Part shown: positions 1,415 to 32,065 of the stretch, in pieces
Layout of the letters: each line of letters starts with the position of its first letter
How positions within the stretch are numbered: position 1 is the stretch's first letter
From: an uncultured Verrucomicrobiota bacterium
Lineage (GTDB): Bacteria; Verrucomicrobiota; Verrucomicrobiia; JABWAM01
Length of the DNA stretch: 64,000 bases
Reading direction: 5' to 3'
Assembly (NCBI GenBank): GCA_964475835.1
Contig: CAYYYL010000012.1
Location: 14,201 to 78,200 of the forward strand
Program-made: the position numbers and the translations under genes
The notes under the pieces: generated by a model
Database searches by the model: none
Told to the model about the DNA's origin: nothing
The model's input: only the letters and a program-made list of their open reading frames with translations

Positions 1415-1980
1415 TGGGCCATCAATCCAAGGGCAATCAAGACAAATCCAAACAGAATCTTTGCCCGTGCCCCCAACAACCACCTCTCCGGGGTTTTCTT
1501 CCAGAAATCGATCGCATCCCGAAGCCAATGTGGAGCGGAAACAATGCAGATGCCCCAGACAATCCAGGTATAAGCGAGCACCACCATCACCAATTTGACC
1601 CTCTCATCGTGCAGAAAGCAGATCCAAAGAATGGGCTTGGCTACAAGGATCAGGAAGAGGCCGATGCTTCGCGCCCCAAGGTAGTGGTCCACATAGAAGA
1701 TCACAAACCCGTAGACCGTCAATCCACCCAGCCACCAATGGTGGACAAAAATCCCAAGAAAGCCTCCGAACCCGGCACCTCGTAGAAACCCGATCTCCAT
1801 CTTGTCCAGAAGGTAGATCGACCAACATGCATCCACCAGCATTAGCACACGTCCAAAACCAACACTCCGCGGAATCCGGGCGACCGTCAACCTGGACGAT
1901 TCTGGAGACGAAAGACACCACCACCCCACCCCAATGGCCACCACCCCGATCGAAACGAAAAGAAGTTGAACATCATTCAT
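1411..1980 (-). CDS. hypothetical polytopic membrane protein
   Basis: ORF 1411..2076. Several hydrophobic helices (LLFVSIGVVAIGVGWW, GGLTVYGFVIFYV, IGLFLILVAKPILWICF, LVMVVLAYTWIVWGICIV, ILFGFVLIALGLM). Start placed at MNDVQLL (1980), because the upstream extension is translated from the heptamer repeat. Confidence 0.5.
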   Translation of the reverse strand: MNDVQLLFVSIGVVAIGVGWWCLSSPESSRLTVARIPRSVGFGRVLMLVDACWSIYLLDKMEIGFLRGAGFGGFLGIFVHHWWLGGLTVYGFVIFYVDHYLGARSIGLFLILVAKPILWICFLHDERVKLVMVVLAYTWIVWGICIVSAPHWLRDAIDFWKKTPERWLLGARAKILFGFVLIALGLMAH

Positions 1981-1993
1981 GCGACCAAAGAAG

Positions 1994-2150
1994 TTGAGAG
2001 ATGAGGGTTGAGAGTTGAGAGAAGGCTTTCCGTGGCACCCTTCAAGGATAAGAGGTTCATGAACGACACCCTCCACTGAATTGTTCCCATATCAGCCATT
2101 CCAGTCGCAAAAGCATTCCATACTCTCAACTCTCAGCGCTCAACTCTCAA
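1994..2150. repeat. 28-nt inverted repeat built from four tandem heptamers (TTGAGAG-type arm 1994..2021; CTCTCAA-type arm 2123..2150), 101-nt spacer
   Basis: The reverse complement of 1994..2021 (ctctcaactctcaaccctcatctctcaa) matches 2123..2150 (ctctcaactctcagcgctcaactctcaa) at 25 of 28 positions by manual alignment. An extra partial copy lies at 2164..2169. Confidence 0.85.
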
Positions 2151-2159
2151 CTGTGTTTT

Positions 2160-2906
2160 TCAACTCTCATCACGTTTCCACTGCATCTTGGAAATAGGGG
2201 CGGTAACCTCCCCAGTGGCACGCCGGGCGAAATTTTTGGCGGTGGTGAAACGCTCGTTGTCAGCCCGGATTCGGCTTCCGAGAAACCGGTTCATCGAAAT
2301 TAAGAATCGTGAGGCCACATCTGGATTCTTCTCCACAATGCTCTCCAACCCCTTCTTGCTGAGCTTTAACAAGGTACAATCCTTGTTTGCAGTCACATCA
2401 GCGGAACGAGGCCCTTCATCCAGCAAGGCAAGCTCCCCAAAAAAATCACCCACGGAAAGCACCGCGATCATATCCTCCTTTCCGGAATTGACCACTGAGA
2501 CCCGAGCCTCCCCCTCCAGTATCAAGTACATCGAGTCCCCATGCTCCCCCTGCTTGACGATGGACGTATAAGCCCTGACCTTCACCTTTTCCACCAGTCC
2601 CAAAAACTGGTCGATGTGCGCATCCGTCATGTCCGCAAAAAGACGGATCCGACGAAGCTGGCCTGCCTTCAAACCCGCCCCCGGAGCCGAAGCGTGAAGT
2701 TTAGAGGTATCACTCAATGCAAGCAGCGACTTGATCGCTTCAACCCCCTCCGCTCGTGTCCAGGAATCCGATCCCTCATGGTACACCCATGTTTGCGGAG
2801 ATAGATGCCGGTCCGTTGCCCATTCCTGCAACAACTTCGTATCCGCCGGGCCATAGGTGTGACGGTCGTCGGCAAAAACAAAATATTTTTCAGGCGATTC
2901 AGACAC
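2160..2906 (-). CDS. GYF_2 (DUF4339)-like N-terminal domain plus cyclic-nucleotide-binding domain protein
   Basis: N-terminus YFVFADDRHTYGPADTKLLQEWATDRHLSPQTWVYHEGSDSWTRAEGV has a GYF_2-like pattern. C-terminus GDSMYLILEGEARV...GDFFGELALLDEGPRSADVTA is the canonical cNMP-binding (FGE.AL...RSA) motif. Confidence 0.8.
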   Translation of the reverse strand: MSESPEKYFVFADDRHTYGPADTKLLQEWATDRHLSPQTWVYHEGSDSWTRAEGVEAIKSLLALSDTSKLHASAPGAGLKAGQLRRIRLFADMTDAHIDQFLGLVEKVKVRAYTSIVKQGEHGDSMYLILEGEARVSVVNSGKEDMIAVLSVGDFFGELALLDEGPRSADVTANKDCTLLKLSKKGLESIVEKNPDVASRFLISMNRFLGSRIRADNERFTTAKNFARRATGEVTAPISKMQWKRDES

Positions 2907-3068
2907 CCCCCGCTTGTATCAACTGTCCGCTACAAATTCCATGAGAAAGACATGTCTGTCCCCCTCCTCTCCAACTCGACGCCGACTTCCCAAAAAATTC
3001 TAATATGGCGTATAAATGACAAAAAATGGTTAGTCACTCCTTAAGGGAACATCCTAGGGTGAGTTCTT

Positions 3069-3938
3069 ATGACGAACTCATCCCTTTCAAAGAAACTGTT
3101 CGGCCTGACCACGTACCTTTTCCTTTGCGCTGCCGCGGTGAGCTGGGGCGAGGACTGGAAAACCAACACCATTTCCCCCGTCACCAACCCCATCTTCTTT
3201 GAAAACCCTCAGATCCAGAGCGAGATACGTCCGATTTTCATGTATCACAATGTGGATAAAAGTTTTCTTACCCAGGGGGGCGACCTTCAAGTCTATGCCG
3301 CCCAACTACGATGGGCAGCCACGGATCGACTTGCCGTGATCGCTACCAAGGATGGGTACATTGATTTTAATCCAACCGCCGCCCTTCCCCACGACGAAGG
3401 ATTTGCCGATCTTGCTCTGGGACTGAAGTTCGCCACCATCGACAATAAGGAGGAGCAATTCATCCTCACCCATGGCATCAAAATTGAACTTCCCACTGGA
3501 AACAAAGGCGTTTTCCAGGGCAACGGCTCGGGAGAAGAGGATCTTTTTGTCTCAACCTCGAAGGGGTGGGGTAAATTCCACGCCATCGCCAGCGCAGGCT
3601 TCCGGGTTCCGAATGACACCGATGTGGAAACAGCCCAATTTCATACAAGCCTCCATCTGGACTATTTCCTTCACCGTTTTCTCATTCCCTTCATCTCCGT
3701 CAACTCTTTCACAATGTTGAACGATGCGAACCAACTTCCCTTGAATACCGAGGGATATGATTTGATTAATTTCGGTTCATCGAATGTTCGTGGAAGAACC
3801 CAGGCGGCCGTTGGCGGTGGTTTCCGTTCCCGTCTCTTCCCCAACATTGATCTCGGGTTTGCCTATGAAGCTGGCATCACCGATCCCAAGGGATTGTTCG
3901 ATGACCGCTTCACAGTCGATTTGATCTATCGCTTCTGA
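3069..3938 (+). CDS. putative outer-membrane beta-barrel protein (transporter/MetA-like family guess)
   Basis: Signal-like N-terminus (LFGLTTYLFLCAAAVSWG), alternating amphipathic pattern, C-terminal beta-signal ending ...FTVDLIYRF. Confidence 0.55.
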   Translation: MTNSSLSKKLFGLTTYLFLCAAAVSWGEDWKTNTISPVTNPIFFENPQIQSEIRPIFMYHNVDKSFLTQGGDLQVYAAQLRWAATDRLAVIATKDGYIDFNPTAALPHDEGFADLALGLKFATIDNKEEQFILTHGIKIELPTGNKGVFQGNGSGEEDLFVSTSKGWGKFHAIASAGFRVPNDTDVETAQFHTSLHLDYFLHRFLIPFISVNSFTMLNDANQLPLNTEGYDLINFGSSNVRGRTQAAVGGGFRSRLFPNIDLGFAYEAGITDPKGLFDDRFTVDLIYRF

Positions 3939-4755: not shown

Positions 4756-7700
4756 TCACTGCCAATAGACCGCTCCCGGTCCTCCCAGATGCCCCATGTC
4801 ATTTCGGCTCGTCCCTACTGCAGGGGGAAGGACGGCGTCATTGGAACCCGACGCTGGATTTCCTGCGTCCACGGTGGGTGAATTGGTGAGCATTCGGTAG
4901 CTTCCATCAAAAACAGGATCCTCTTCAATATTTCCTATTGCATTGAAACCTCCCTGCACGTCGCTGTATTCGACCTTCATATCGCCTGAAATTTGAGCGT
5001 CCCAGGTGGGCATAAGATAGCTGATTTTGATGCAACGACTGCCCTCGGCCGGATTGCGCTTGGAGGAGTCGCTCAAACTCATCGCCGACGTGTTTCCCAT
5101 CCAACCGGAGGGGACGTATTGGTCGTGGACATCTTTATAAATCCAAAACGGAAGAACTGGGGTAGGCGGGGTGGTCGGCAAGGGTGCCAGTCCCCCGTTA
5201 TCATAGACTATATCATCGAGATAGAAGGTCGCGCCCCCAGGGTTATCAGCCTTTGCAATGATAAAGGAAAACCCTCCGATCACGTCGCTTAAATTCATGC
5301 CCGCGAGATTGATTTCATACGACTGCCACGCCGTGCCGAGCGTCAAAACAGGCGTTTCTGCCCGGAATGTGTCGGGGAACGGGCCAGCGATCCCGCCTGC
5401 CACAAATTTCACCTTCACTCCGGCCATCGCCCCACGCGCCATGAATTTTACCTTGGCCGCTCCAGTCAGATTATAACCGGCGCGAAAGATGGTTCCCCAA
5501 TTGTCATCCGGATTTTGCCAGTAGATCCCAGCCCAGCCATTGGTGATGGACAACGCCGCTGAATAGTCCACTCGAATGCTTTGGGTGCCTGAGCCCGGCG
5601 TCGAGGTATCGACGGCGCTGAATTGCAAGGCACCCGCATCCCCCATCCATCCGGAGGGAAGATAATATCGATCGTGCGCCTCTTTATAGATCGCATGAGG
5701 CAGGGGAAGCGCCGGCACGGAATTCGTCGGGCCAGCCGCTCCACCATTGTCGATCATGATGTTGTCGACATAAAACACCCACCCGGTTGGATTGGACGCC
5801 GCGTTGTCCGCCCATGTGTACACAAACCCAAACCCCCCGCTCACACGGCTCAAATCCTTTCCCGTGAAATCGAGCTCATATTGCTTCCAGACATTGGTCA
5901 GTGTAATGAAACCAGTCGACAATTTCGGCAATGTGTCGGGATAGGCCCCAGTGATTCCCCCTGCAAAAAATTCCAGAGAAATACCCGGAGTCTCTCCTCG
6001 CGCCATGAATTTCAATTTCTTCGCACCCGTCAAATTTAATCCACCATTCGGAACGCTTCCCCAATTGTTCATGGGACCCTGCCAGTAAATTCCGGACCAG
6101 CCCCCCGGATAGTTATGGCTCACTTCATTGTTGAAATAGAAAATGGAATTCACCACCTCCGCCCCCCCGTGATCGTTATGAACCGCGGGCGCAGTCTTAT
6201 TGCCGATAAAGCTGCAATTTGCGGCGTACATCCCACCGGTAGATACACACAAGGCGCTTCCGAGAATCATCTTCCGTCCTCCAGCGATCAGATCGTTTCG
6301 AGCAAAAAGATCATTGAACAACGTCAGGATTCCTGAATCCTGATAAACCGCTCCCCCGGAAGCAAAACTCCAGTCGGGAGTGCTGGGGCCCGCGTTTACA
6401 TAACAAGCGTTATCGAGAAAAGAACAGCCACGGAACGAGTTGGTTCCTCCACCTGCCCAAATGGCTCCACCCTGGGCGTAACGACCAGTGGCTGCATAAA
6501 TCGTCAGGGCACGAGCCTGGTTGTTGCTGAAATCACATCTCGTCAATATGGAACTTCCAAAAACCCTCACCGCTCCGCCCTGGGTATCCACATAGGGCGT
6601 GAACGCAGGATCGGTCATGTTACCGCGAAATACACAGTGATCCGCAGTAAAGGTACCATTGCTTAACACCGCACTTATGGCCCCTCCCGCGGCAAAGGCG
6701 GTGTTGTTGGTGAAGGTGCAACCTGGAAGATTCAGATCTCCCTTCGACAAAACGAGGTCGATCGCCCCGCCACGATTCTCTGAACTATTGTTAAAAAAGC
6801 TGCAATGATCGATGACCGGCACATTTTCCACCAAGCGCAAGGCGCTATTGGAAGCACCCTTGAACACGCACCAATGAAACTCACTCCCTGGAATGGTGTT
6901 CTGAAATAATAGTCCCTGCCACGACACCGAATTGGTACCCGCCGCCTGGAAAACGATGGGTTGAGACTGGGTTCCCAACGCTTTGATCACGCCATTCACA
7001 CGAACAGCGGTGTTGCTCTGGAATTGGATCGTGACCCCAGGTTGGATTTCCAGGTCATTGATGAGAAGGTCGTTTGTCACAAGAACCGGTGACATCGACG
7101 CATCCCAGAACTGACCCGCGATCGTCCCCCCCACCGGCGTGGGACCGCGGGCCGGCACCGTCAATACCGCCTCAGGACTCGTAATCGAACCCACCCCATT
7201 ACTCACAATCACCCGATACGTGCTGCCACTATCGGCAAAAAACAAGGGGGGCGTGACATAGGTCGCCTGGGTCGCCCCAGGGATATTCACCCGGTTCTTC
7301 TGCCACTGGTACGACAATGGCAAATCACCCCCCGTCACAATCCTCCACGTGGCACTCCTTCCCAGGGCCACCGCCTGCGATTCAGGGGGTGACACAATCA
7401 CAGGAGCACCCCCATTCCAATCAATGGCTCCAGGACCACCAAAGTGTCCCATATCATTGCGAACCGACCCGAGTGACGGGGGAAAGAGGGTGTCATTGTA
7501 GGCGGGAGCGGGATTTCCCGCGTCAATCGTCGGCGAAGGCGCCACGGGACGATTCTGACCATCCAGTGCAGGATTTAAATGGATGTTCCCAGTCCCCGGT
7601 GCCATTCCATACACATCACTGAAATCCACCTGTACCGAACCGGAAATCTGGGGTCCGTTACTGTTGTTAAAATAAAAAATGCTGTTCTGCGCCATCGCCG

Positions 7701-10254
7701 TTCCTCCCTGGTTGTGAATGACCGGGGCGGCCTGATTCTTAAAGAAGGTACTATTCTGGACCGCGAGACTTCCTGCTGAAACATACACGGCACTGCCGAG
7801 CATCTGATTTCGGCCCCAAGCCATCAAATTCTGATCGGTAAAAAGGCAGTTGATGAGATTCAATACGCCGGATCCCTGATACATCGCACCGCCATGGGCA
7901 AAACTCCAATCCGGAGTACTCGGTCCCGGCATCAGATAGCATTGGTTGGCGCCAAAAGAACAGGCCCGGAAGGAATTGGTTCCGGTATCACACCACACCG
8001 CCCCCCCACGCGCATAGCGCCCCGGTGCAGTGAAAATGGTATAGGCGTCCGCCTGGTTGTTCTGAAACCGGCAGCGGATGAAGGAGGAATTTCCCGAAAT
8101 TTTCACCGCCCCTCCGGCGGTGTCGATTCCTGAAGTAAACGAGGGGTTCAAACTGTTGCCCTCGAAAACCCCATCCTGAACGTTCAAACTTCCCTTGCTC
8201 ATCACCGCCTTTATCGCCCCGCCGCCATACACCGCGGAGTTGTTGGTGAAATCGCAGCTTTGAAGATTGAGATCACCCTGCTTGAAGGTGGCATGAATAG
8301 CTCCTCCGTCGTCTGTTGACCGGTTATTGTAAAATCGGCAGCTCTTGATGACAGGAACGCCATCCTGAAGTCGTAGCGCTGTGCGCGTGGCCCCTTGAAA
8401 GACACATCCTTGCAGAACACTCCCCGCCAGCGCGTTGGTGAGGACCATCCCCTGCCAGCCATTCGAATTCCCAGGAGCAGGTTGGAAAAGGACAGGCTTG
8501 TCCGACTGTCCCTGAACTTTCAGCAATCCCGAGGCTTTGATCCCACTGTTCGTTTGAAAGAGAACGATCACACCGGGATCAATCGTCAGGTTGCTGACCA
8601 CGAGATCTCCCGTCACAAGGTACGGGGACGTTGACTCCGACCAGACCTGCCCATTCACGACGCCACTCACCAGCGTGGGTGCACGCACCACGACCGTCAC
8701 CGTCGCTACAGCGGAGTCGGCACGTCCGTCATTCGCCTTATACGTAAAAGTATCGGTCCCAACGTAACCCGCCACCGGAGAATAAACAAAATCAGTTCCC
8801 GTTCCTGAAACGGTTCCATGCACAGGAGGACTCACCACCCCGTATGTCAGGACATCCAGATCGCTGTCGGTTCCCGAGACGCGAATCGTGACGGAAGCCC
8901 CCATACCCGTGCTTGCACTGCGGGCAAGCGCCACAGGAGGGTGATTTCCGGCAACCCCAACCTCGGAAAACACCACCTGCGTGGAATTCGTTCCCGTATT
9001 GGCGCTCACTTGAACAAGGTTCGTCCCAAAGCCCAACCCAAGTTTGAGATAAGCCGATACCACGCCGTTCGTTGAAGTCCGCACAATGAGAGTCGTCCCC
9101 GGCGTGGAATCGGGCGTGACAGCGAGTTGAGCTCCCCCCTGGGTGACACTGAATTTCACCGGGGCATTATTGAGATTCGCGCCCGCAACAACCGCCTTGA
9201 CCGTAAGTGGAAGCATTAGAAAGGAATTGGTCGGAGCCACCTGGCGATCCCCTCCCACAACACTCAAGACGGGAACCACTCCGTTGAAATAGTCCGTGGG
9301 GTCACTGGCACTCTGAAACTCCTGCAGATTGGAACGACCATCTCCATCCAAATCTCCAACGGGATCGACGCTCAGGGTCTGAAAATATCGAAGTCTCCAA
9401 CTATCCAGCATGCCCAGGGAACCCGTGTCCCCATCAAAATCACCCGTACCCACAATCTGCCATTGTCCGGGAAGGACAGACCCCGGAACCCAGCTGATGC
9501 CCGAAAGGACCGTGGTCCCATTCATGAATGTCACCGCACGATCCCCCGTTAACGCGTTCTGCCAGATCAGATCGGGTTTGCCGTCCTGATTTAAATCCCC
9601 TACGGCCGCAACCTGCCAGGAAGGGGGAACTGTGCCCACCGGAATCAAGCCGCCGGGAACCAGATTGTTGAAAAGCTGAAGACTGACATCCCCCGTCCCA
9701 GCATGCTCCACCACCAGATCCAGAAAGCCGTCCCCATTAAAATCCCCACATCCCTTGACCTGAAGAGCCACCGGCCAGGTGGCAAAAACCATGCTGTTTG
9801 TAATCTGCCCACCGCTCATGAAGGAAAAAATGCGCCCCCCCGTTGTCGTGTTTTGCCAGACAAGTGTGGTGCTTACATCCCGGCGAAAATCCCCAGCCGC
9901 CGCAATCTGCCATTCCGTGGGCACATTCGCGACATAGACCGCATTGCTTGCGACACACCCCGACATCAACAAGCCCCACCGATCCCCGGTCGTTGTGTTC
10001 TGAACAAGGATATCAGGACTTGGATCGGTATTCAGACGGCCAACCCCCGCGATTTTCCATTCGGGCGGAAGGGTGGCAAATGGAACGGCCACCGTGGAGG
10101 TCGTTCCATTCATGATCGTGACAAAACGCTCCCCTGTGGAGGTGTTTTCCCAAAGGACATCCGTCCTCCCATCCCCGGCAATCGCGTTCCACACCATCGA
10201 AAGGTGAATGAAAACCAGAAAGGTCCGAAAGCACAAAACAGGCCTGAAACTCAT
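4756..10254 (-). CDS. giant secreted mosaic surface protein: FG-GAP/VCBS-like repeats, Ig-like domains, two Pmp-type beta-helix units, inserted CBM-like modules
   Basis: ORF 4756..10296; start placed at MSFRPVLCFRTFLVFIHLSMVWNAIAG (10254, signal-like). Repeats of the type DILVQNTTTGDRW / TLVWQNTTTGGRI / DLIWQNALTGDRA are FG-GAP/VCBS-like. DLDGDGRSNLQEF is a Ca-binding-like motif. Many GGAI/GGAV plus F..N repeats point to a polymorphic-membrane-protein-type beta-helix. PLSYQWQKNRVNIPGATQATY...STYRVIVSNGVGS is I-set Ig-like. Confidence 0.85.
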   Translation of the reverse strand: MSFRPVLCFRTFLVFIHLSMVWNAIAGDGRTDVLWENTSTGERFVTIMNGTTSTVAVPFATLPPEWKIAGVGRLNTDPSPDILVQNTTTGDRWGLLMSGCVASNAVYVANVPTEWQIAAAGDFRRDVSTTLVWQNTTTGGRIFSFMSGGQITNSMVFATWPVALQVKGCGDFNGDGFLDLVVEHAGTGDVSLQLFNNLVPGGLIPVGTVPPSWQVAAVGDLNQDGKPDLIWQNALTGDRAVTFMNGTTVLSGISWVPGSVLPGQWQIVGTGDFDGDTGSLGMLDSWRLRYFQTLSVDPVGDLDGDGRSNLQEFQSASDPTDYFNGVVPVLSVVGGDRQVAPTNSFLMLPLTVKAVVAGANLNNAPVKFSVTQGGAQLAVTPDSTPGTTLIVRTSTNGVVSAYLKLGLGFGTNLVQVSANTGTNSTQVVFSEVGVAGNHPPVALARSASTGMGASVTIRVSGTDSDLDVLTYGVVSPPVHGTVSGTGTDFVYSPVAGYVGTDTFTYKANDGRADSAVATVTVVVRAPTLVSGVVNGQVWSESTSPYLVTGDLVVSNLTIDPGVIVLFQTNSGIKASGLLKVQGQSDKPVLFQPAPGNSNGWQGMVLTNALAGSVLQGCVFQGATRTALRLQDGVPVIKSCRFYNNRSTDDGGAIHATFKQGDLNLQSCDFTNNSAVYGGGAIKAVMSKGSLNVQDGVFEGNSLNPSFTSGIDTAGGAVKISGNSSFIRCRFQNNQADAYTIFTAPGRYARGGAVWCDTGTNSFRACSFGANQCYLMPGPSTPDWSFAHGGAMYQGSGVLNLINCLFTDQNLMAWGRNQMLGSAVYVSAGSLAVQNSTFFKNQAAPVIHNQGGTAMAQNSIFYFNNSNGPQISGSVQVDFSDVYGMAPGTGNIHLNPALDGQNRPVAPSPTIDAGNPAPAYNDTLFPPSLGSVRNDMGHFGGPGAIDWNGGAPVIVSPPESQAVALGRSATWRIVTGGDLPLSYQWQKNRVNIPGATQATYVTPPLFFADSGSTYRVIVSNGVGSITSPEAVLTVPARGPTPVGGTIAGQFWDASMSPVLVTNDLLINDLEIQPGVTIQFQSNTAVRVNGVIKALGTQSQPIVFQAAGTNSVSWQGLLFQNTIPGSEFHWCVFKGASNSALRLVENVPVIDHCSFFNNSSENRGGAIDLVLSKGDLNLPGCTFTNNTAFAAGGAISAVLSNGTFTADHCVFRGNMTDPAFTPYVDTQGGAVRVFGSSILTRCDFSNNQARALTIYAATGRYAQGGAIWAGGGTNSFRGCSFLDNACYVNAGPSTPDWSFASGGAVYQDSGILTLFNDLFARNDLIAGGRKMILGSALCVSTGGMYAANCSFIGNKTAPAVHNDHGGAEVVNSIFYFNNEVSHNYPGGWSGIYWQGPMNNWGSVPNGGLNLTGAKKLKFMARGETPGISLEFFAGGITGAYPDTLPKLSTGFITLTNVWKQYELDFTGKDLSRVSGGFGFVYTWADNAASNPTGWVFYVDNIMIDNGGAAGPTNSVPALPLPHAIYKEAHDRYYLPSGWMGDAGALQFSAVDTSTPGSGTQSIRVDYSAALSITNGWAGIYWQNPDDNWGTIFRAGYNLTGAAKVKFMARGAMAGVKVKFVAGGIAGPFPDTFRAETPVLTLGTAWQSYEINLAGMNLSDVIGGFSFIIAKADNPGGATFYLDDIVYDNGGLAPLPTTPPTPVLPFWIYKDVHDQYVPSGWMGNTSAMSLSDSSKRNPAEGSRCIKISYLMPTWDAQISGDMKVEYSDVQGGFNAIGNIEEDPVFDGSYRMLTNSPTVDAGNPASGSNDAVLPPAVGTSRNDMGHLGGPGAVYWQ
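4999..6126 (-). other. 376-aa cassette of two ~180-aa CBM-like modules in shifted phase, inserted within beta-helix unit 2
   Basis: Order is C-terminal module part (6126..5737), full module (5700..5188), N-terminal module part (5154..4999). Module motifs GIYWQ.P..NWG, NLTGA.K.KFMARG, W..YE..L.G..LS.V.GGF match the modules of the gene at 25459..31731. Confidence 0.8.
6127..7146 (-). repeat. beta-helix unit 2, main body (its 80-aa tail lies at 4759..4998, after the inserted cassette)
   Basis: aa 1051-1390 ending NSIFYFNN. Tail aa 1767-1846 (AQISGDMKVEYSDV...RNDMGHLGGPGAVYWQ) aligns with the unit 1 tail (PQISGSVQVDFSDV...RNDMGHFGGPGAIDWN). Confidence 0.8.
7426..8682 (-). repeat. beta-helix unit 1 of the giant protein (paralogous to unit 2)
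   Basis: aa ~539-957. This unit aligns along its whole length with unit 2 (e.g. SPYLVTGDLVVSNLTIDPGVIVLFQ vs SPVLVTNDLLINDLEIQPGVTIQFQ; PSTPDWSFAHGGAMYQGSGVL vs PSTPDWSFASGGAVYQDSGIL; NSIFYFNN in both). Boundaries are approximate. Confidence 0.8.
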
Positions 10255-10373
10255 AGGGGGAGCACCGATCCTACCCCCACGGACCCCCCATCTCAATCAA
10301 ATGACAGGACCCACATTCGCAAGTCTAATACCAGCGACTAAAACCTCCCTTGGACACCGCCAAAAAATTCGCC

Positions 10374-11180
10374 TTACGTCAGAAGTTTTAACACGTTCTG
10401 AGCCGCAAGATTGCCATGGGAAACCGCCGAAACCGCAGCCCGGTTCAAGATACCATTCTTTGCCAGATTTGTGCTTTCCTCTGCAAAATCAACATCCGAA
10501 ATCCGTGAATTGGCCTGAATCGTATTCAGCCGCTCCGACTGAATGTTTCCCGAGGTGTAACTGAGCGCAGCCACATCGGCATTCACCTTCGCCCGACTCG
10601 AGGCAATATTCTGAATGGAGGAGCTGATCTGGCTGATGGCCAATTGGGCCGCATCCGGCGTCAACACATTGCTCGTACTGATTCCGGATACATCACTCCC
10701 GGCATCCGCAATCGACAGCGTGTACACATTGGATCCGGAAGCATCCACCGCCGTTCCCACATTCTGACTGGCATCAAAAACCCGGGTTCCATTGAAGGAT
10801 GCATTCTGAACCTCGTTGTTGATCTGGTCGCGCACCTTGGAGAACTCCTCATTCAATGCGGTGCGGTCATCGGCATTCAAAGTCCCATCCTTGGCCCTTA
10901 CAGCAAGCTCGCTCAAGCGACCCAATTGCCCCTGAATCACATTCAAAAATCCATCCGCCGTCTGAGCAAATGAGGTGAGATTCTGGACCCCCTCCGAAGC
11001 CGCACTCAAACTCCGGGTTGCCGCATCCAGCTTGCTGGAAACCGCCGCCGCGGTCGGATCGTCCGAAGGATCCGCAAATTTTTTTCCCGAGGCCAAACGC
11101 TTCCCCGACTTCTGCAAACCATCGTTTGTCAATCGCAGATAGTAGAGGGCATTCTGGGATGAAATTTCAGATAAACTCAT
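10374..11180 (-). CDS. flagellin-family protein (minimal D0/D1-only flagellin or FlgL-like), 268 aa
   Basis: Start at MSLSEISS (11180), preceded by GGAGG. The N-domain LASGKKFADPSDDPTAAAVSSKL...LGRLSELAVRAKDGTLNADDRTALNEEFSKVRDQI...FNGTRVFD and the C-domain RAKVNADVAALSYTSGNIQSERLNTIQANSRISDVDFAEESTNLAKNGILNRAAVS...NVLKLL follow the flagellin_N/flagellin_C pattern. Confidence 0.7.
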   Translation of the reverse strand: MSLSEISSQNALYYLRLTNDGLQKSGKRLASGKKFADPSDDPTAAAVSSKLDAATRSLSAASEGVQNLTSFAQTADGFLNVIQGQLGRLSELAVRAKDGTLNADDRTALNEEFSKVRDQINNEVQNASFNGTRVFDASQNVGTAVDASGSNVYTLSIADAGSDVSGISTSNVLTPDAAQLAISQISSSIQNIASSRAKVNADVAALSYTSGNIQSERLNTIQANSRISDVDFAEESTNLAKNGILNRAAVSAVSHGNLAAQNVLKLLT

Positions 11181-11264
11181 GGTAAACCTCCAATGGATGG
11201 TTGGATTCGATGGGCCATGCCCCTCCCGGGGTATTTGGGTGAGAGACACTCTCTTGACTCCCAC

Positions 11265-11293
11265 AATATCCACCCGTTTTGCACACTTGTCAA
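11265..11293 (-). promoter_or_regulatory. sigma70-like promoter candidate upstream of the flagellin-family gene
   Basis: The minus strand reads TTGACA - 17 nt (agtgtgcaaaacgggtg) - GATATT, about 85 nt upstream of the ATG at 11180. Confidence 0.4.
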
Positions 11294-23047: not shown

Positions 23048-23643
23048 CCCTTGCCAACATTGTCACGCTGACCCGGATCGGACTTATTCCGTGTTTTGTG
23101 GTTGCCGTCGTTTACTATGCTCAAAGCGTCAAACTTGGCATGCCTAATCCATGGCAACACACGCTCGCAGTCACTTTTTTCGTCATCGCCGCCTCGACGG
23201 ATGCCCTCGACGGCTACCTCGCCCGTCGATTAAATCAGAAAAGCCGGTTTGGCAGCATTCTCGATCCCATCGCCGACAAAGCCCTTCTCCTCACCTCCAT
23301 CGGCCTTCTCAGCTGGAATCATGGAGATGCGTTCGACCAACTCCCACTCTGGTTTCCGATCGTCATTTTGAGTCGCGACGTCATTGTCGTGCTCGGAGTT
23401 GTCATTGTCTTCATGATGGGCAAGGGCTTTGACATCGAACCCCATTGGATTGGAAAAGTGGCCACCGTCCTTCAGATGATCACCGCCGGACTTGTTCTCG
23501 TTCGGGTCCCCGAGGGGTACTGGACGACCCCCATGTGGATTTCAGGAGTTCTCACCGTGGTTTCAGGCATCATCTACGTTATCGAGGGAAGTCGGAAAAT
23601 GACCCATGACGACCTCCATCAATCGGGCCGCTCCCGATCGTAA
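23044..23643 (+). CDS. pgsA: CDP-alcohol phosphatidyltransferase (phosphatidylglycerophosphate synthase-like)
   Basis: ATGA overlap with lnt. DALDGYLARRLNQKSRFGSILDPIADK matches the D-G-x2-A-R-x8-G-x3-D-x3-D motif. Confidence 0.85.
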   Translation: MTLANIVTLTRIGLIPCFVVAVVYYAQSVKLGMPNPWQHTLAVTFFVIAASTDALDGYLARRLNQKSRFGSILDPIADKALLLTSIGLLSWNHGDAFDQLPLWFPIVILSRDVIVVLGVVIVFMMGKGFDIEPHWIGKVATVLQMITAGLVLVRVPEGYWTTPMWISGVLTVVSGIIYVIEGSRKMTHDDLHQSGRSRS

Positions 23644-25458: not shown

Positions 25459-28400
25459 CTATTCGTAACGAATATTATCCAGATAGAACGTGGCGCCTGA
25501 TGGATTGTCGGTTTTGTTAAACACACAACAGAAACCACCCACCACACGGGTTAGATCCTTGCCAGCAACACTCATCTGATATTGCTGCCAGGCACTCGTG
25601 AGGGTGATCACAGGCGTGACTGTCTTGAATGAATCCGGGTAAGGCCCGGAAATTCCACCCGCAATGAACTGAACCTTTTCACCACCCACCTGACCACGAG
25701 CCAGGAATTTGATGGTGGTCGCACCCGTCAGATTCAATCCACCGTTCGTCACCGTTCCCCAATTTCCATTGGGATTCTGCCAGTAGATTCCCGACCAATT
25801 ATTGCCTAGTGTGGCATCGCCACTGTAGACAATCTTTATGCTCTTGGTCCCCTCACCCGGATTGGACGTATCCGTATCCGAAAACGTCAGATCCGTGTAA
25901 TCCCCCATCCAACCCGTCGGCCCGTATTTGTCGTGTGCATCGCCAAAAATAACCAGAGGCAACACGGTTTGAGGAGGAGGAGGAGGAGGAGGGGTAATCG
26001 TAGGTGCCGTTCCCGTATCCACATCGATATAGTCGAGGTAGAAGGTTGCCCCACTCGGATTGTCCGTCTTGTTCAAAACAAAGGCGAAACCACCCACCAC
26101 ACGAGTCAGATCCTTGCCGGTCAGGTCCAGGGTGTATTGCTGCCATGCCGAGGTGAGAGTCACCACCGGACCCTGGGACTTGTAGGTATCTCCATAAGGT
26201 CCAACAATTCCACCACTGATAAACTGAACCTTCTCCCCTCCCACCTGGCCTTTGGCCCAGAAATGGACCGCTTTGCCACCCGTCAGATTTAGACCCCCAT
26301 TGGTCAATGTTCCCCAGTTTCCATTGGGGTTCTGCCAATAGATGCCAGCAAACCCATTTCCGCCAATACCACTGTAGGCAATTTTGATACTATTGAACCC
26401 TTCTTTCGGACTGGTCGTGTCCGAATCCGAGAACGTAAGGGAAGTCACGTCTCCCATCCACCCCGTGGGTCCATACTTATCATGGGCATCCTTGTAAATA
26501 AACAGGGGCAGGGTTTGAACGGGTCCGGGAGGGGGATCCACCGGCGGGGGCGTCCCGTTATCGAAGTAGATATTATCCAGATAGAACTTCGCCCCGGTGG
26601 GGTTGTCCGCCTTGGTTGCCGCGAACGCGAATCCACCCACCACGCGGGTCAGATTCTGTCCGGCAAGATTCAATTCAAAATTTTGCCACGCCGTGGTCAG
26701 GGTCACCGTCGGCCCAGTCACCTGATACGTGTCACCATAGGTGCCGGCGATTCCTCCGCTGATGAATTGAACCTTCTCCCCTCCAATCTGCCCACGTGCC
26801 TGGAACTTCACCTTCAGGGCGCCCGTTAGATTATACCCAGCCGTGGAGTTTGTCCCCCAATTGTTCGCTGGGTTCTGCCAATAGATTCCGCCAAAGGCAG
26901 GGGCCGTGGGCGATGAAGGGGTGTATTGCACGCTGATGCAGGCAAAACCGCCGCCGGTATTTGTGAGTACTGCATCGTCCAGCGTCAATCCGACGATATC
27001 CCCCATGTATCCGCTCGGAGCATATTTATCATGGGAATCCTTGTAGATGTAGAAGGGCCACGAGGCTGGAGTCGGAAGCGTCGGAACCGAAATCGAACCG
27101 TTCTCATAGCGAACGCTGTCGATGAAGACAGTCGCCCCGCTGGGAGAAAGGGACTTCAAGAAGCCGATTGCGAAACCATCCACCACGCGACCCAATTCCT
27201 GGCCGGTGAGGTCGATTTCGAAATCCTGCCATGCCGTTCCGACAGTCAGAATGGATGACAACACCTTGAAGTTGTCGCCATACGGTCCATCCACGCCACC
27301 GGCAAGGACTACAAACTGCTCCCCGCCAACAAGACCGCGGGCCTGGAATTTCACGCGACGAGCCCCGGTCAGATTATAACCTCCGTTGGGATCGGTTCCG
27401 AGGTTGTTCGCCGGATTCACAAAAGGCACTACAGCGAAGCCTTGTCCGGCACTCACCGCTCCAGAATAAGTGAAGCGCACACATTTGGTGCCCTCACCCG
27501 GATTCACGGTCTCTTCACTGGCGCCCATATCTCCGATATCCCCCACCACCGTCGGGAAATATTGATCCACGCCATCGCGATAGATGTAAAATGGCCATGA
27601 AGCAGGGGTCGGCAACGGAGTTGTAATCCCATTGTCGTACCGCATGTTATCCACATAGACCGTCGCACCTGCAGGATTCTGGGCCTGAACAAGACCCACA
27701 CCAAATGCATCCACAACGCGGGACAAGTCCAATCCTGTCAGATCGAATTCGAAGGACTGCCAGGCGGTGGTGAGCGTCACCTGACCGGTGGTGAAAAGGG
27801 TGTCGCCATAAGGAGCCCCCACAAGGCCTCCCAGAAGGAAGATCACCGTTTCACCGCCCACTTTTCCACGAGCCATGAATTTCATCTTCTTGGCCGCACG
27901 CAGATTAAATCCTCCGTTGGGATCACTACCAAATCCATCCTTCGGATTCTGCCAGATCGCGACGCCAAAGCCCTGGCCGCTGGAAGCTGCAGCCGAGTAT
28001 TGAACCTTGATCGATTTCGTTCCCTCTCCAGGGTTGGTGACATCGTTTTCATCGATCAGGAAGTCGCCCGTATCACCCACCACACTTGAGGTGTATTGAT
28101 CCACGCTGTCCTTGTAGATATAGAACGGCCATGAACCAGGCACCGGCCGCAGAATAGGCAACGTCGGCGTGTTAAGAATCCGGATGTTATCCAGATAGAT
28201 GGTGCCACCCGTCGGATTGTCCGCTTTCGTCACGGTGAACGCAAATCCACCGAGCGCATGGGTCATATCCTTGCCCGTCAGATCGATTTCATACTCCTGC
28301 CACGCCGTGGTCAGAGTCAACAACGAGGTCTGGGACTTGTAGGTATCGGGATAGGTTCCAACAATACCACCTGAGATGAAGGTTGCCTTCACGCCTGGAG

Positions 28401-31400
28401 CCCCGCCACGAGCGAAGAAACGCAGTTTGGTGGCCCCAGTCAGGTTTAATCCACCATTCGATACTGTTCCCCAGTTGTCAGCAGGATTCTGCCAGTAGAC
28501 TCCGGCAAAATTATTGGTGCTGAAGGTCGTGTTATACACAATCTTGATCGACTTCAAACCTTCCTGCGGATTTGTGGTGTCAGTATCCGTAAAGGTCAAA
28601 GTGTTCACATCCCCCATGAAACCCGTGGGAAGATACTTGTCGTGAGCATCCGTATAGATGTTCACCGGCCACGATGCAGGAAGTGGTGAAGGGGGACGAA
28701 CCGGGGGAACCGTTCCGTTGTCGTAGTAGATGTTATCCACAAAGAATGTGCCACCCAGCGGATTATCCGTCTTGGTAACCGTGAATGCAAATCCACCCAG
28801 AACGTGGGTCAGATCCTTGCCGGCAAGGTCAATCTCGAACGACTGCCATGCCGTGGTCAGGGAAAGAACCGCCGTCTGGGACTTGTAAGTATCCGGAAAG
28901 GTCCCTGCAATACCACCCCCCTGGAATTGAACCTTGGTTCCAGCCACTGCAGCACGGGCCATGAACTTAAGCTTAGTAGCACCCGTCAGATTGAATCCAC
29001 CATTACTTACTGTTCCGAAGTTGTTGGCGGGATTCTGCCAGAAAATTCCGGCAAATCCGTTAGTTCCCGCACCGCTGTACTGAACGCGGAAACTCTGGAA
29101 ACCTTCACCAGGATTGTTGGTATCGTCCGCCACGGTAAGGGACGTGACGTCACCAAAAAACCCGCTCGGAACATAACTCACACTGGTGTCCTTGTAGACA
29201 TAGACCGGCCATGAAGCAGGTACAGGCGACGGAGGTCGGGTCGGGATGACCGAACCGTTGTTGTAATAGATGTTATCCAAAAACAACGTCGCACCAGCAG
29301 GATTATCCACCTTGGCGAGCGTGAAGGCGAAGGCGCCAATCACACGACTGACATCCTTGCCAGCCAGGCTCACCTGGAAGGTTTGCCACGAGGTGGTCAG
29401 AGTGATGTTGGTCTGGACCAGAAATGAATCGGGATACGCTCCGGTCACCCCACCCCCTGTGATGGTGGCCTTCACTCCATTGGCGGAAGCTTTGGCCATG
29501 AAGTTCAAGGTTGTGGCACCCGTGAGATTGTATCCACCATTGCTGACGGTGCCAAAATTATTGGCAGGGTTCAGCCAATAGACACCTGCAAATCCATTCG
29601 TACTGGTAGCCGCATTGTACTGAATCTTGATGTTCTGCGCACCTTCACCTGGGGCGGCCGTGTCGGTATCCGAAAACGTGAGCGAGTTGAAATCACCGAA
29701 GAAACCGCTCGGCGCATAAGGTCCTTCCACATCCTTGTAAATATAGAATGGCCACGAGGGCGGCGTTGGCAACACGGGAGGAGTGGAAACCGTTCCGTTA
29801 TCATAACGGATATTGTCGAAAAACACGGTCGCTCCAGTCGGATTGTCCGCCTTGCTCATCGCAAAGGCAAAGGCTCCCACCACACGACTTAAATCCTTGC
29901 CTGCGAGATCGATCTCAAAGTTCTGCCAGGCGGTTGTCAGAGTGGTCAGCGGAAGGGCAGACTTGAAGGTGTCCTGGAAGTTAAACGAGGTCTGATAGCT
30001 CCCCGTCACACCACCGGCCACAAACTGCACCTTGGCCCCGGCAACCGAAGCGCGGGCCATGAATTTCAACTTCAGGGCACCCGTCAGATTGAAACCTCCA
30101 TTGGTCAGTGTTCCAAAGTTGTTCGCAGGATTCAACCAGTAGACTCCGGCAAACGTGTTGGGGCCCGTCGGAGTATATTGAACCTTGATATCCGCAAATC
30201 CTTCACCGGGATTGATGGTGTCTGTGTCCGTAATCACCACATCACTGGTATCTCCAAAATACCCGCTCGGAGCATAAGAACCCTCCGAATCCTTGAAGAT
30301 ATAGAAGGGCCATGTCGGGGGAGTCGGAAGGGCCGGGAAGGTGGGGGTCACACTGCCGTTATCATAGCGAACGTTATCCACAAAAACGGTTCCACCCGTG
30401 GGATAGTCCGTTTTTGCCACCACAAACGCGAATCCACCGATGACGCGGGTCAGATTTTTACCCGCCAGATCAATTTCATAATTCTGCCAAGCAGAGGTCA
30501 GGGTAACCGAAAGAGGGGTGACACTGAAGGTGTCTGCAAAGGCACCCGTGATTCCACCCGCGAGGAATTGAATCTTTTCCCCACCCACCTGACCGCGCGC
30601 CATAAACTTCAATTTGGTCGCACCAGTCAGATTCAGACCGCCATCAATGGTTCCAAAATTATTCGCGGGATTCTGCCAGTAAACACCAGCAAACCCCTGG
30701 GCTCCCGCACCGCTATACTGGATCCTGACGCAGGCAAAACCCTGACCAGGAGTGGTCTGGTTTGCATCATCCAGAACCAGCGAGGTGGTGTCTCCGAAAT
30801 AACCACTGGGTGCGTAGGGACCTTCCGCGTCTTTATAGACATAAAGAGGCCACGAAGGAGGAATCGTCACCGCTGTAATTCCTACAGCCGCCTTTGCTGC
30901 AGCAGTGGAGGTCGCAGTCGAGGAATTGGCCTTGGCGGGATCCGTTCCATTCAAAAATTCCTGACGGTTGGACACCCCGTCATGATCAAAGTCATCATCA
31001 CCCGACTGATTCAAATTGCCAAAATAATGAAGTTCCCACGCATCCGCCAGGCCATCATGATCCGCATCCACAAACGTCGCACCCTTGACCGAAACATGAT
31101 CGAATGTCGATGCATTCAAAACATGGGTTTGATGACTGCAAACCACAAGCCCCACCAACGCCTGACCCGCAAACGAAACTGAATCGCTCCCCACAAGCTT
31201 CCAACGAACTCCATCCGAGGATACAAACGCCTGAACCTCATTCCCCGAACGCGAAAGCTTCAACCAGACCGGCGCCTTGCTTTTTCCGCCGGATACCGAC
31301 TTCGTCTGGGCACCCGAATTCAAACGGCGCATAAAGGAGACGCCACTGCCAGGCGTCACCACAATTGAAGCATGTCGCGCGTTGGCATCCAGTGATTCTC

Positions 31401-31731
31401 GAATCATCAAACCCGCTTTTGCAAAAGTATGAGTCCCCTGAATAGTTGCGATGCGGGCCACGATTTCGCCATTCGCAGGCAGTGACTGATAAACAAACTG
31501 AAACGCATCCGTGCGACCCCAGATATCAGCCCCGGAACCGGAAACCGAAAATAGATCCCCCTCAATCGTTGCCGAACCCGCCTTCCCAACCCGACCCACA
31601 TCCTGGTTTGTCCAGAGCTCAATCGCGGAGGATTCAGCATGAGCCACATTGGAAAACAGGACAACGGAGACGAAACAGAACAGGAAGAGACGGGAACACC
31701 AGCGACGAAATCCGGCAGATGATTGAGTCAT
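25459..31731 (-). CDS. giant secreted protein: ConA-like lectin (DUF1349-like) domain, Ca-binding TSP3-like motifs, ten tandem ~180-aa CBM-like modules
   Basis: ORF 25459..31869; start placed at MTQSSAGFRRWCSRLFLFCFVSVVLFSNVAHA (31731, signal peptide). aa 80-262 (W..QDVG..G.A...G..F.V.GSGADIWG..D.F.FVYQ...G...ARI......FAKAGLMIRE...LSRSGN.V.AF.S.DG..W) fit a ConA-like pattern. DADHDGLADAWE...DDDFDHDGVSNRQEF are the Ca-binding motifs. The repeat array follows. Confidence 0.9.
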   Translation of the reverse strand: MTQSSAGFRRWCSRLFLFCFVSVVLFSNVAHAESSAIELWTNQDVGRVGKAGSATIEGDLFSVSGSGADIWGRTDAFQFVYQSLPANGEIVARIATIQGTHTFAKAGLMIRESLDANARHASIVVTPGSGVSFMRRLNSGAQTKSVSGGKSKAPVWLKLSRSGNEVQAFVSSDGVRWKLVGSDSVSFAGQALVGLVVCSHQTHVLNASTFDHVSVKGATFVDADHDGLADAWELHYFGNLNQSGDDDFDHDGVSNRQEFLNGTDPAKANSSTATSTAAAKAAVGITAVTIPPSWPLYVYKDAEGPYAPSGYFGDTTSLVLDDANQTTPGQGFACVRIQYSGAGAQGFAGVYWQNPANNFGTIDGGLNLTGATKLKFMARGQVGGEKIQFLAGGITGAFADTFSVTPLSVTLTSAWQNYEIDLAGKNLTRVIGGFAFVVAKTDYPTGGTVFVDNVRYDNGSVTPTFPALPTPPTWPFYIFKDSEGSYAPSGYFGDTSDVVITDTDTINPGEGFADIKVQYTPTGPNTFAGVYWLNPANNFGTLTNGGFNLTGALKLKFMARASVAGAKVQFVAGGVTGSYQTSFNFQDTFKSALPLTTLTTAWQNFEIDLAGKDLSRVVGAFAFAMSKADNPTGATVFFDNIRYDNGTVSTPPVLPTPPSWPFYIYKDVEGPYAPSGFFGDFNSLTFSDTDTAAPGEGAQNIKIQYNAATSTNGFAGVYWLNPANNFGTVSNGGYNLTGATTLNFMAKASANGVKATITGGGVTGAYPDSFLVQTNITLTTSWQTFQVSLAGKDVSRVIGAFAFTLAKVDNPAGATLFLDNIYYNNGSVIPTRPPSPVPASWPVYVYKDTSVSYVPSGFFGDVTSLTVADDTNNPGEGFQSFRVQYSGAGTNGFAGIFWQNPANNFGTVSNGGFNLTGATKLKFMARAAVAGTKVQFQGGGIAGTFPDTYKSQTAVLSLTTAWQSFEIDLAGKDLTHVLGGFAFTVTKTDNPLGGTFFVDNIYYDNGTVPPVRPPSPLPASWPVNIYTDAHDKYLPTGFMGDVNTLTFTDTDTTNPQEGLKSIKIVYNTTFSTNNFAGVYWQNPADNWGTVSNGGLNLTGATKLRFFARGGAPGVKATFISGGIVGTYPDTYKSQTSLLTLTTAWQEYEIDLTGKDMTHALGGFAFTVTKADNPTGGTIYLDNIRILNTPTLPILRPVPGSWPFYIYKDSVDQYTSSVVGDTGDFLIDENDVTNPGEGTKSIKVQYSAAASSGQGFGVAIWQNPKDGFGSDPNGGFNLRAAKKMKFMARGKVGGETVIFLLGGLVGAPYGDTLFTTGQVTLTTAWQSFEFDLTGLDLSRVVDAFGVGLVQAQNPAGATVYVDNMRYDNGITTPLPTPASWPFYIYRDGVDQYFPTVVGDIGDMGASEETVNPGEGTKCVRFTYSGAVSAGQGFAVVPFVNPANNLGTDPNGGYNLTGARRVKFQARGLVGGEQFVVLAGGVDGPYGDNFKVLSSILTVGTAWQDFEIDLTGQELGRVVDGFAIGFLKSLSPSGATVFIDSVRYENGSISVPTLPTPASWPFYIYKDSHDKYAPSGYMGDIVGLTLDDAVLTNTGGGFACISVQYTPSSPTAPAFGGIYWQNPANNWGTNSTAGYNLTGALKVKFQARGQIGGEKVQFISGGIAGTYGDTYQVTGPTVTLTTAWQNFELNLAGQNLTRVVGGFAFAATKADNPTGAKFYLDNIYFDNGTPPPVDPPPGPVQTLPLFIYKDAHDKYGPTGWMGDVTSLTFSDSDTTSPKEGFNSIKIAYSGIGGNGFAGIYWQNPNGNWGTLTNGGLNLTGGKAVHFWAKGQVGGEKVQFISGGIVGPYGDTYKSQGPVVTLTSAWQQYTLDLTGKDLTRVVGGFAFVLNKTDNPSGATFYLDYIDVDTGTAPTITPPPPPPPQTVLPLVIFGDAHDKYGPTGWMGDYTDLTFSDTDTSNPGEGTKSIKIVYSGDATLGNNWSGIYWQNPNGNWGTVTNGGLNLTGATTIKFLARGQVGGEKVQFIAGGISGPYPDSFKTVTPVITLTSAWQQYQMSVAGKDLTRVVGGFCCVFNKTDNPSGATFYLDNIRYE
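25462..30852 (-). repeat. tandem array of ten protein-coding ~540-nt (178-186 aa) modules
   Basis: Module starts (W/L of the WP.YIYKD motif) at nt 30852, 30312, 29754, 29211, 28671, 28131, 27597, 27060, 26511 and 25962. The array ends with the stop codon. Consensus: WPFYIYKD..D.Y.PSG(F/Y/W)(F/M)GD...IK(I/V)QY...FAG(I/V)YWQNPANN(F/W)GT..NGG.NLTGA.KLKFMARG..GG.KVQF.AGG..G.YPDT(F/Y)....LT.AWQ..EIDL.GKDL.RV.GGFAF...K.DNP.GAT.(F/Y).DNI.YDNG. Confidence 0.9.
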
Positions 31732-32065
31732 GGAAGAGCCTTTTGAGTTATGAGTTGCGTTTGAAAGAGTACGGGGAATAGTACGATAGTAGTATAGATT
31801 TGGTTGAGGAGTGTCAAGGCGGCGAAAAAAAAAAGCTCCAGCCTTATAAGGCCACCTTATTTCACACATTTTGAGGGTGTTTTCCCTTCACCACCCCCTC
31901 CCACTTCTGCCCCATTGGAGGGAAGCAGGAACGCATTTGTTGTATGACAAGAAATATCTAAAATCAGCAATACCACACTCATACAAATCATTTATATTCA
32001 ATGGGTTGTGAAAATTTTCTCATCCACACCTTGATTGCCTTTTCTCGAGCTGATATTCTACCTCC

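Follow-up and report, generated by a model that had tools for sequence, protein, structure and literature searches.

How does a β-helix protein accommodate an insert that starts and stops in the middle of a domain? This question is raised by gene 1 in a stretch of 64,000 nucleotides from a Verrucomicrobiota metagenome-assembled genome (MAG; assembly GCA_964475835.1, contig CAYYYL010000012.1, positions 14,201 to 78,200; hereafter the window). Gene 1 encodes a probably secreted multidomain protein with two right-handed β-helix units. At a four-residue turn of the second unit, the chain is interrupted by 376 residues (aa 1391-1766, nt 4999-6126; residue numbers are those of the open reading frame, ORF) that comprise, in this order, the C-terminal ~120 residues of a module, a whole module, and the N-terminal ~50 residues of a module. 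We show that the insert represents about two repeat periods of a tandem array of β-sandwich modules, akin to carbohydrate-binding module (CBM) families CBM11 and CBM30, opened in the β4-β5 loop and placed in frame in the helix turn. On balance, we favor a nested, permuted cassette, in which the middle module would fold alone and the two end fragments would join as a second complete sandwich.

Unit 1 serves as the uninterrupted reference. In a BLASTP comparison, unit 1 (aa 536-1045) and unit 2 (aa 1046-1846) are 46% identical over 419 residues up to the motif NSIFYFNN, which is found twice in gene 1 (aa 871-878 and aa 1383-1390). The alignment resumes at QISG with 54% identity over 78 residues, aa 1767-1846 of unit 2 being homologous to aa 883-960 of unit 1. 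The gap between the two segments in unit 2 is aa 1391-1766 (nt 6126..4999), where unit 1 has SNGP. Four uninserted homologues (P0001, P0005, P0137, and P0138) and unit 1 read NN-x(4)-QI.G at this site, indicating that entry and exit of the insert coincide at a single helix turn. With host sequence homologous on both flanks and uninserted homologues known, the locus is a domain insertion in a right-handed β-helix. A preliminary description, made from the DNA letters and their translations, had already placed the insert after NSIFYFNN in otherwise alignable units, with entry and exit at adjacent residues, and the alignments bear this out. The host domain itself scores above the Pfam gathering thresholds (Chlam_PMP, 53.4 bits, cut-off 20.6; Beta_helix, 44.5 bits, cut-off 25.9), and a PDB sequence search with unit 1 found no relative.

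Module boundaries were taken from a MAFFT alignment and a hidden Markov model (HMM) built from the modules, with the array of gene 2, the second giant gene of the window, as the in-window reference for the native phase. All ten ~180-residue modules of gene 2 (ORF aa 341-2136, nt 25462-30849) are full-length HMM matches, in agreement with the ten repeats reported earlier for 25459..31731. Gene 1 gives three matches: aa 1375-1519 (HMM 34-168, or 51-168 when the insert is scored alone; 150 bits), aa 1534-1702 (HMM 2-168; 246 bits), and aa 1716-1762 (HMM 1-47; 40 bits). Relative to canonical homologues, the C-terminal part precedes the N-terminal part in the chain (HMM 51-168, 2-168, 1-47), and the shifted phase described earlier for the insert is correct in every detail. 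The C-fragment spans strand β5 (WSGIYWQ) to the last strand (FYVDNIMIDNGG), and the N-fragment spans strands β1-β4 (FWIYKD ... CIKISY).

The cut falls between strand ..IKIxYS and strand WAGIYWQ, in the variable-length β4-β5 loop, which is the sole site in the N-terminal half where the ten gene 2 copies vary in length. The N-fragment ends at HMM 46-47 and the C-fragment begins at ~51-54, both in this indel-rich loop. As had been noted from their lengths, the two fragments sum to one module, without overlap or gap beyond the loop. In addition, the 376 residues of the insert are twice the local period, which is 188 residues between the two W.GIYWQ motifs. The features are collected in Table 1.

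Table 1 Positions of gene 1, gene 2, and the parts of the insert in the window.
Feature	Position (strand)	Details
Gene 1, host	4756..10254 (-); ORF from 10296	Uninterrupted translation
β-Helix unit 1, uninterrupted reference copy (aa 536-960)	7417..8691 (-)	Reads ...NSIFYFNN-SNGP-QISGSVQVDFSDV...
β-Helix unit 2, pre-insert part (aa 1046-1390), ends NSIFYFNN	6127..7161 (-)	BLASTP; 62% identical to P0133
Junction peptide EVSHNYPGG and C-fragment (aa 1391-1520)	5737..6126 (-)	HMM ~51-168, 150 bits; pLDDT 87-96
Linker 1 (aa 1521-1532), Pro-rich, poorly conserved	5701..5736 (-)	40% identity to P0133; pLDDT 75-79
Complete native-order module (aa 1533-1704)	5185..5700 (-)	HMM 2-168, 246 bits; pLDDT 84-98; Foldseek CBM30/CBM11 matches
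Linker 2 (aa 1705-1714), poorly conserved	5155..5184 (-)	23% identity to P0133; pLDDT 57
N-fragment (aa 1715-1766) and junction peptide LMPTWD	4999..5154 (-)	HMM 1-47, 40 bits; pLDDT 80-84
β-Helix unit 2, post-insert C-terminal part (aa 1767-1846), AQISGDMKVEYSDV...GGPGAVYWQ	4759..4998 (-)	65% identical to P0133
Gene 2	ORF 25459..31869 (-); probable start 31731	Signal peptide, DUF1349, ten in-phase tandem modules

We searched 1.84 billion representative proteins exhaustively with HMMER. Besides P0132, which is the protein of the window itself, a single true homologue was recovered, P0133 (2073 aa; overall identity, 51%). The remaining high-scoring proteins are uninserted β-helix proteins or in-phase tandem arrays. 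P0133, which is encoded on a separate NCBI contig (144 kb; the window's contig is 79 kb), is collinear with all of unit 2 including the insert. It gives the HMM pattern 51-169, 2-169, and 2-58, has its fragment ends in the same loop, and has junctions as in gene 1 (NSILFLNN/QVEHNFVSAAWAGVYW and CIRVGYLVPTWG/PQVSGNFKIEYSDV). Because P0133 shares the insert and the other helix proteins are uninserted, sequence comparison dates the insertion after the duplication of the helix units and before the split of the gene 1 and P0133 lineages.

The conservation between gene 1 and P0133 extends over all three module pieces. The identity is 63% in the C-fragment, 56% in the N-fragment (67% at its junction), and 58% and 63% in the N- and C-parts of the middle module, compared with 62-65% in the flanking helix, 40% in linker 1, and 23% in linker 2. 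The family-invariant residues are retained in both fragments, including all invariant residues of the C-part and the PSGWMG motif. This comparison shows the three pieces to be under the same constraint.

To which family does the module belong? A profile of 17 modules, searched against a 5.8-billion-sequence collection, identifies >2,500 proteins that carry the module. Stand-alone secreted proteins with a signal peptide make up the majority, of ~200 aa with one module or ~390 aa with two, and they typically terminate exactly at ...FYLDDIxYE. Proteins of Candidatus Omnitrophota dominate, with others from Endomicrobia, Planctomycetota, and further MAGs, and the module is also common in Verrucomicrobiota and relatives. 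The bulk of the members are without Pfam annotation or informative name, and no Pfam or NCBIfam model covers the family. Some members are fused to catalytic domains, namely glycoside hydrolase family 2 (GH2) in P0006 and P0305 and GH17 in P0286. P0003, P0004, and P0008 carry the module together with a C-terminal domain without assigned function, which may be glycosidase-like. P0286 passes the Pfam threshold for CBM30 (40.8 bits) and P0305 that for CBM_11 (31.7 bits). For CBM30, gene 2 as a whole attains 32.4 bits, but only by summation, as none of its stretches passes singly, and the module profile weakly matches the CBM4-2 module of a Rhodothermus xylanase in the PDB (E = 0.013).

Structure prediction points the same way. 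The predicted module superimposes on solved CBM β-jelly-rolls in Foldseek. The best matches of the insert model are CBM30 (1wzx_A; template modelling (TM) score 0.66, root-mean-square deviation (rmsd) 3.9 Å) and CBM11 (6r31_A; TM 0.62), with a probability of 1.00, followed by CBM22, CBM4, and CBM8. The module thus has the same predicted β-jelly-roll fold as CBM11, CBM30, CBM4, and CBM22 (PDB 1wzx, 6r3m, 1k42, and 4xup; TM up to 0.66) and gives weak profile matches, and relatives fused to GH17 or GH2 pass the CBM30 or CBM_11 threshold. However, it is only 13-18% identical in sequence to the solved CBMs, the modules of genes 1 and 2 stay below the Pfam thresholds, and most family members, in contrast to the CBMs, are stand-alone secreted proteins of Omnitrophota and related phyla. 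On the basis of the models and profiles, the module is filed as a divergent, undescribed β-sandwich relative of the CBM11/CBM30 group. This defines a large unannotated family whose ligand is worth finding. The flagellar sheath protein FlaA1 (PDB 9cyn) is among the weaker structural matches (TM 0.44-0.46), a likeness that is probably generic to jelly-rolls.

The pieces could fold in two ways. In topology (a), the middle module is intact and the C- and N-fragments complement each other. In topology (b), the middle module is divided, its N-part pairing with the C-fragment and its C-part with the N-fragment, giving two tandem circular permutants. All chain ends meet at one point in both, so both are compatible with insertion at a turn. 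We predicted the full insert (aa 1383-1774) with AlphaFold2 from 61 natural sequences. The model has a mean predicted local distance difference test (pLDDT) of 85.9 and a predicted TM (pTM) score of 0.61. Both fragments are modelled confidently, with the lowest values in linker 2 (Table 1), and the four strands of the middle module's N-part recur in the N-fragment. By these values the fragments are predicted to be ordered, and their HMM scores relate them to the module.

The topology was read by Foldseek rather than from coordinates or contact maps. For a sequential aligner to match a native-order CBM along its whole length, the model must contain a native-order domain. The match of the full-insert model to 1wzx_A (175 aa) extends over 189 columns, with the TM score and rmsd given above. 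A permuted control (aa 1383-1584), which is modelled as a single compact domain (mean pLDDT 80, with 60-86 in the strands of the N-part; pTM 0.80), matches the same entry over 123 columns with a TM score of 0.33; its best overall Foldseek E-value is 2e-3, versus 1.5e-7 for the full-insert model. Because the full-length native-order match to CBM30 is absent from the permuted control, an intact native-order middle module is implied in the full-insert model. Given such a middle module and confident β-structure at both ends, the simplest reading is that the end fragments pair into a second complete sandwich, as in topology (a), and we regard this pairing as somewhat the more probable outcome in the model. 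The same closure had been proposed in the preliminary description. The confident, conserved β-structure of the fragments and the Foldseek comparison with its control speak for it, but the alternative pairing also gives a compact predicted fold and the coupling scores described below are neutral.

A further family member bears on nesting. In P0229 (1038 aa), aa 72-430 contain a whole module (aa ~216-393) within a loop (HMM ~130) of another, with almost no linker. Judged from its sequence, P0229 shows that the two termini of the module lie side by side and that nesting is tolerated in the family, independently of the gene 1 case. P0083, considered as an independent permutant (C-part, then N-part), was rejected, being a gene call within a frameshifted P0003-like gene. 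At its locus (JBFMAF010000004.1, an Acidobacteriota MAG, 1501-3459), one frameshifted P0003/P0004-like gene with two modules and a C-terminal α/α-type domain has been called as two genes, P0083 and the one next to it.

In the nested arrangement, the chain would run from strand 5 to the last strand of one module, through a linker into the whole module, and through a second linker into strands 1-4. The new termini of the split sandwich would be adjacent residues of one loop; therefore, the cassette could enter and leave the helix at one turn, here a turn of four residues near the C-terminal end of the second β-helix unit. The result would be a three-level nest, with an intact module at the old termini of a split permuted module that itself sits in a β-helix turn.

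Such a cassette could have arisen from a tandem array through permutation by duplication, for which there is precedent (PMC3320104). We infer that the insert pattern is what this model expects of a two-repeat window taken out of phase from an array. An out-of-phase copy of a tandem array may have been inserted, or a two-repeat circle may have been excised from an array by repeat recombination and integrated at a single breakpoint. The integer number of repeats would follow from the second route, because integration of a circle gives whole repeats automatically; selection for foldable inserts would likewise give an integer number. Canonical-order or tandem relatives that could be precursors are the ten copies of gene 2, eight copies in P0134, four in P0135, and >100 two-module proteins.

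The preliminary description had read the insert as a record of module shuffling between the two giant genes and had suggested a phylogeny of the 12 module copies. In neighbor-joining trees of the N-parts and C-parts, each piece pairs with its counterpart in P0133 (bootstrap 93, 61, and 57). The insert modules are not placed within the clade of the gene 2, P0134, and P0135 arrays but form a weak basal group (bootstrap 19), and they are no closer to gene 2 than the gene 2 modules are to one another. The trees do not place the donor of the insert, as support is <20% beyond the orthologous pairs of gene 1 and P0133. Because the insert modules do not nest among the arrays, direct shuffling is unproven; by these trees, the two genes seem to have a module subfamily in common and no more.

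The domains of gene 1 bear on what the cassette may do. The ORF (4756..10296, reverse strand) has 1846 codons and is open throughout. The ATG at 10254 (ORF aa 15) is the likely start, giving a protein of 1832 aa, and its N-terminus resembles a signal peptide, as judged by eye from MSFRPVLCFRTFLVFIHLSMVWNAIAG. The public protein for gene 1, P0132 (1813 aa), begins at Met34 (nt 10197), without the hydrophobic signal-peptide-like segment; Met15 looks like the better start. Pfam matches in gene 1 are FG-GAP/VCBS repeats, a Big_9/cadherin-like domain (aa 451-535), two regions of Chlamydial-PMP or right-handed β-helix repeats, and, between the two units, a weak Ig_3 (Ig-like) match (aa 965-1033). 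Two CBM-like sandwiches in a secreted protein rich in adhesin-type domains point to glycan recognition next to the helix as the putative role of the cassette. The two sandwiches would be glycan-binding modules mounted rigidly beside the β-helix of an extracellular adhesin-like or polysaccharide-active protein, held at the C-terminal end of the second β-helix by two chain crossings instead of a flexible tether.

Several points weigh against this reading. The pairing of the two fragments is deduced rather than seen in coordinates. The alignment given to AlphaFold2 has ~60 rows on the middle module, including ~50 single-module rows in native order, versus 10-30 on the fragments, biasing the model towards an intact middle module, and the alternative pairing of the C-fragment with the N-part of the middle module is also compact in silico, at the pTM of 0.80 given above. 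We also asked which N-part suits which C-part by means of a mean-field direct-coupling analysis (DCA) score trained on 459 family modules. In cross-validation, the score separates native from swapped pairings for 79-96% of adjacent modules (two-module proteins), but for only 68% of the Verrucomicrobial arrays held out. It shows no preference in gene 1 or P0133, where topologies (a) and (b) differ by -7 to +9; the native margin is typically 171 +/- 105. The Pfam gathering thresholds for CBM30 (PF21582) and CBM_11 (PF03425) are not reached by single modules of genes 1 and 2, with a best E of 0.029. Carbohydrate binding by the module is suggested by the fold and by domain associations in other proteins only. 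An origin by circle integration is speculation, the junctions being too diverged for testing.

How do other explanations compare with the nested cassette? The source contig is metagenome-assembled and repeat arrays are hard to assemble, so that repeat collapse or a chimeric join of gene 1 with a gene-2-like array might have created the junctions at ~6126 and ~4999. However, no near-identical DNA links the insert to gene 2. The best DNA matches are 64-79% identical in short patches, mostly 64-74%, with a maximum of 79% over 38 nt, and repeats within the gene are ~74% identical in DNA. At the protein level, the gene 1 modules are 41-55% identical to those of gene 2 and 52% (C-parts) or 41% (N-parts) identical to each other. 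The frame is open, the GC content and the GC content at third codon positions are uniform along gene 1, and P0133, from a separate contig and at 51% identity, has both junctions with conserved junction peptides. Because the copies are too diverged and an independent homologue has the same junctions, the insert is confirmed as genuine, and an assembly or gene-calling artefact is extremely improbable. Chance resemblance is likewise excluded, the module matches scoring 150, 246, and 40 bits. A genuine insert might still be a decaying remnant of a three-module insertion in which only the middle module is functional and the ends are eroding leftovers, present as disordered or partly folded linkers. 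The shortness of the N-fragment and its score of only 40 bits would fit. Yet, across the 51%-identity divergence, conservation of the fragments matches that of the whole module, unlike that of the true linkers; the fragments sum to one module without overlap or gap beyond the loop; and both are confidently predicted as β-strands. Independent erosion that halts at the same loop on both sides is improbable, and we consider a remnant very unlikely.

The closest competitor of the nested cassette is its domain-swap isomer, topology (b), with permuted domains at aa 1391-1584 and aa 1585-1766. Two tandem permutants would be expected if a single permuted module had been inserted first and then duplicated. 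The isolated segment aa 1383-1584 is predicted to be compact; therefore, the 17-residue linker can close the sandwich. This arrangement would also have the lower contact order, with its pairing available first during translation. Among the four single pairings, the DCA score is highest for the C-fragment and the middle module's N-part, with equal summed scores, and a weakly supported clade (bootstrap 19) unites the four C-parts from gene 1 and P0133. On the other hand, the full-insert model holds a native-order complete sandwich by Foldseek length and TM score relative to the control, and the first N-part strands have pLDDT values of 60-67 in the control versus 84-95 in the full model. The C-fragment is 52% identical to the C-part of the middle module and up to 55% identical to gene 2 modules; because it is no closer to the former, there is no sign of a recent internal duplication. 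We regard the tandem permutants as possible but doubtful. It is unlikely, and less probable still, that the cassette is naturally bistable between a nested pair and two tandem permutants, or that it is an obligately complemented, split domain that closes only with the whole cassette and the helix turn. If so, folding of the helix cap would be coupled to the binding modules in a natural "split-domain clamp" that selection would have maintained from before the divergence of the two known lineages.

The gene 1 locus has its own setting. A flagellin gene (Flagellin_N and Flagellin_C; 10374-11273, reverse strand) precedes gene 1 on the same strand at a distance of 77 nt, and a ClpC-type ATPase at 14308-16794 shares 96% identity with its counterpart in JABDCI010000007.1. 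The immediate downstream neighbors of gene 2 are a DUF1559/N-terminal-methylation (prepilin-like) gene (24476-25273, reverse strand) and a DUF3108 gene (23619-24443, reverse strand), which are typical gene content of the PVC group (Planctomycetes, Verrucomicrobia, and Chlamydiae). In gene 2, a DUF1349 (concanavalin-like) domain occupies ORF aa 108-262, and the last strand of module 10 is also the exact end of the protein. Divergence is greatest in modules 6 and 7, which are without the PSGWMGD Trp/Gly pattern, and module 7 is also without the YWQNP motif.

No orthologous locus was recovered from genome contigs (queries, unit 2 of gene 1 and P0133) or from metagenome contigs (queries, P0133 and an alignment of gene 1 with P0133), and look-ups of identical sequences for gene 1 and P0135 were negative. 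With flagellin as a synteny anchor, only loci with 41-48% identity were found, without relatives of gene 1 or gene 2. With a shortened ClpC anchor, none of 165 loci among the matches listed encodes a relative of gene 1 or gene 2, the closest genomes (JABDCI01) not being among these loci.

The cassette is of a known kind, namely circular permutation via tandem duplication, present as a domain insertion, and does not constitute a new biological system. It is a real and rare natural example, and its form is unusual and apparently undescribed, with an intact copy between the halves, a CBM-like fold, and a β-helix host. The engineered Bacillus GluXyn-1 (PDB 1axk) is evidence that a circularly permuted jelly-roll, bearing a second domain at a loop or at its old termini, is possible with both folded. 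GluXyn-1 differs in being man-made, enzymatic, and of a different family, and it is a weak structural match to the insert model (rank 20, TM 0.21). For protein engineers, the cassette may serve as a template of a β-sandwich binding module that tolerates new termini in the β4-β5 loop, carries a copy of itself at the old termini, and is mounted at two points on a β-helix turn.

The closest natural analogue is swaposin, the permuted saposin that forms the plant-specific insert of plant aspartic proteinases and is related to the tandem saposins of prosaposin (Ponting and Russell 1995, reviewed in PMC3320104). In both cases, the domain is canonical and tandem elsewhere (prosaposin; here, gene-2-type arrays) and permuted as an insertion in an unrelated host domain, and permutation by duplication is the explanation offered. 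Swaposin, however, is a four-helix bundle, whereas here a ~170-residue β-sandwich is inserted in a β-helix turn. Unlike swaposin, the insert is two repeat lengths long with an intact copy between the halves, and it is bacterial and so far found in two proteins only.

DNA methyltransferases have been described as intermediates of permutation by duplication (Jeltsch 1999, cited in PMC3320104). As in these intermediates, a tandem duplicate is truncated at both ends at corresponding positions and a redundant middle copy is present. Here, however, embedding in another domain takes the place of newly gained start and stop codons as the cause of truncation, and the intermediate state has persisted over a long divergence. 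Permutants with a redundant middle copy are predicted but rarely seen intermediates of the permutation-by-duplication model. Because the intermediate-like state of gene 1 is embedded in another domain and conserved, it would represent a stable end-point rather than a transient one.

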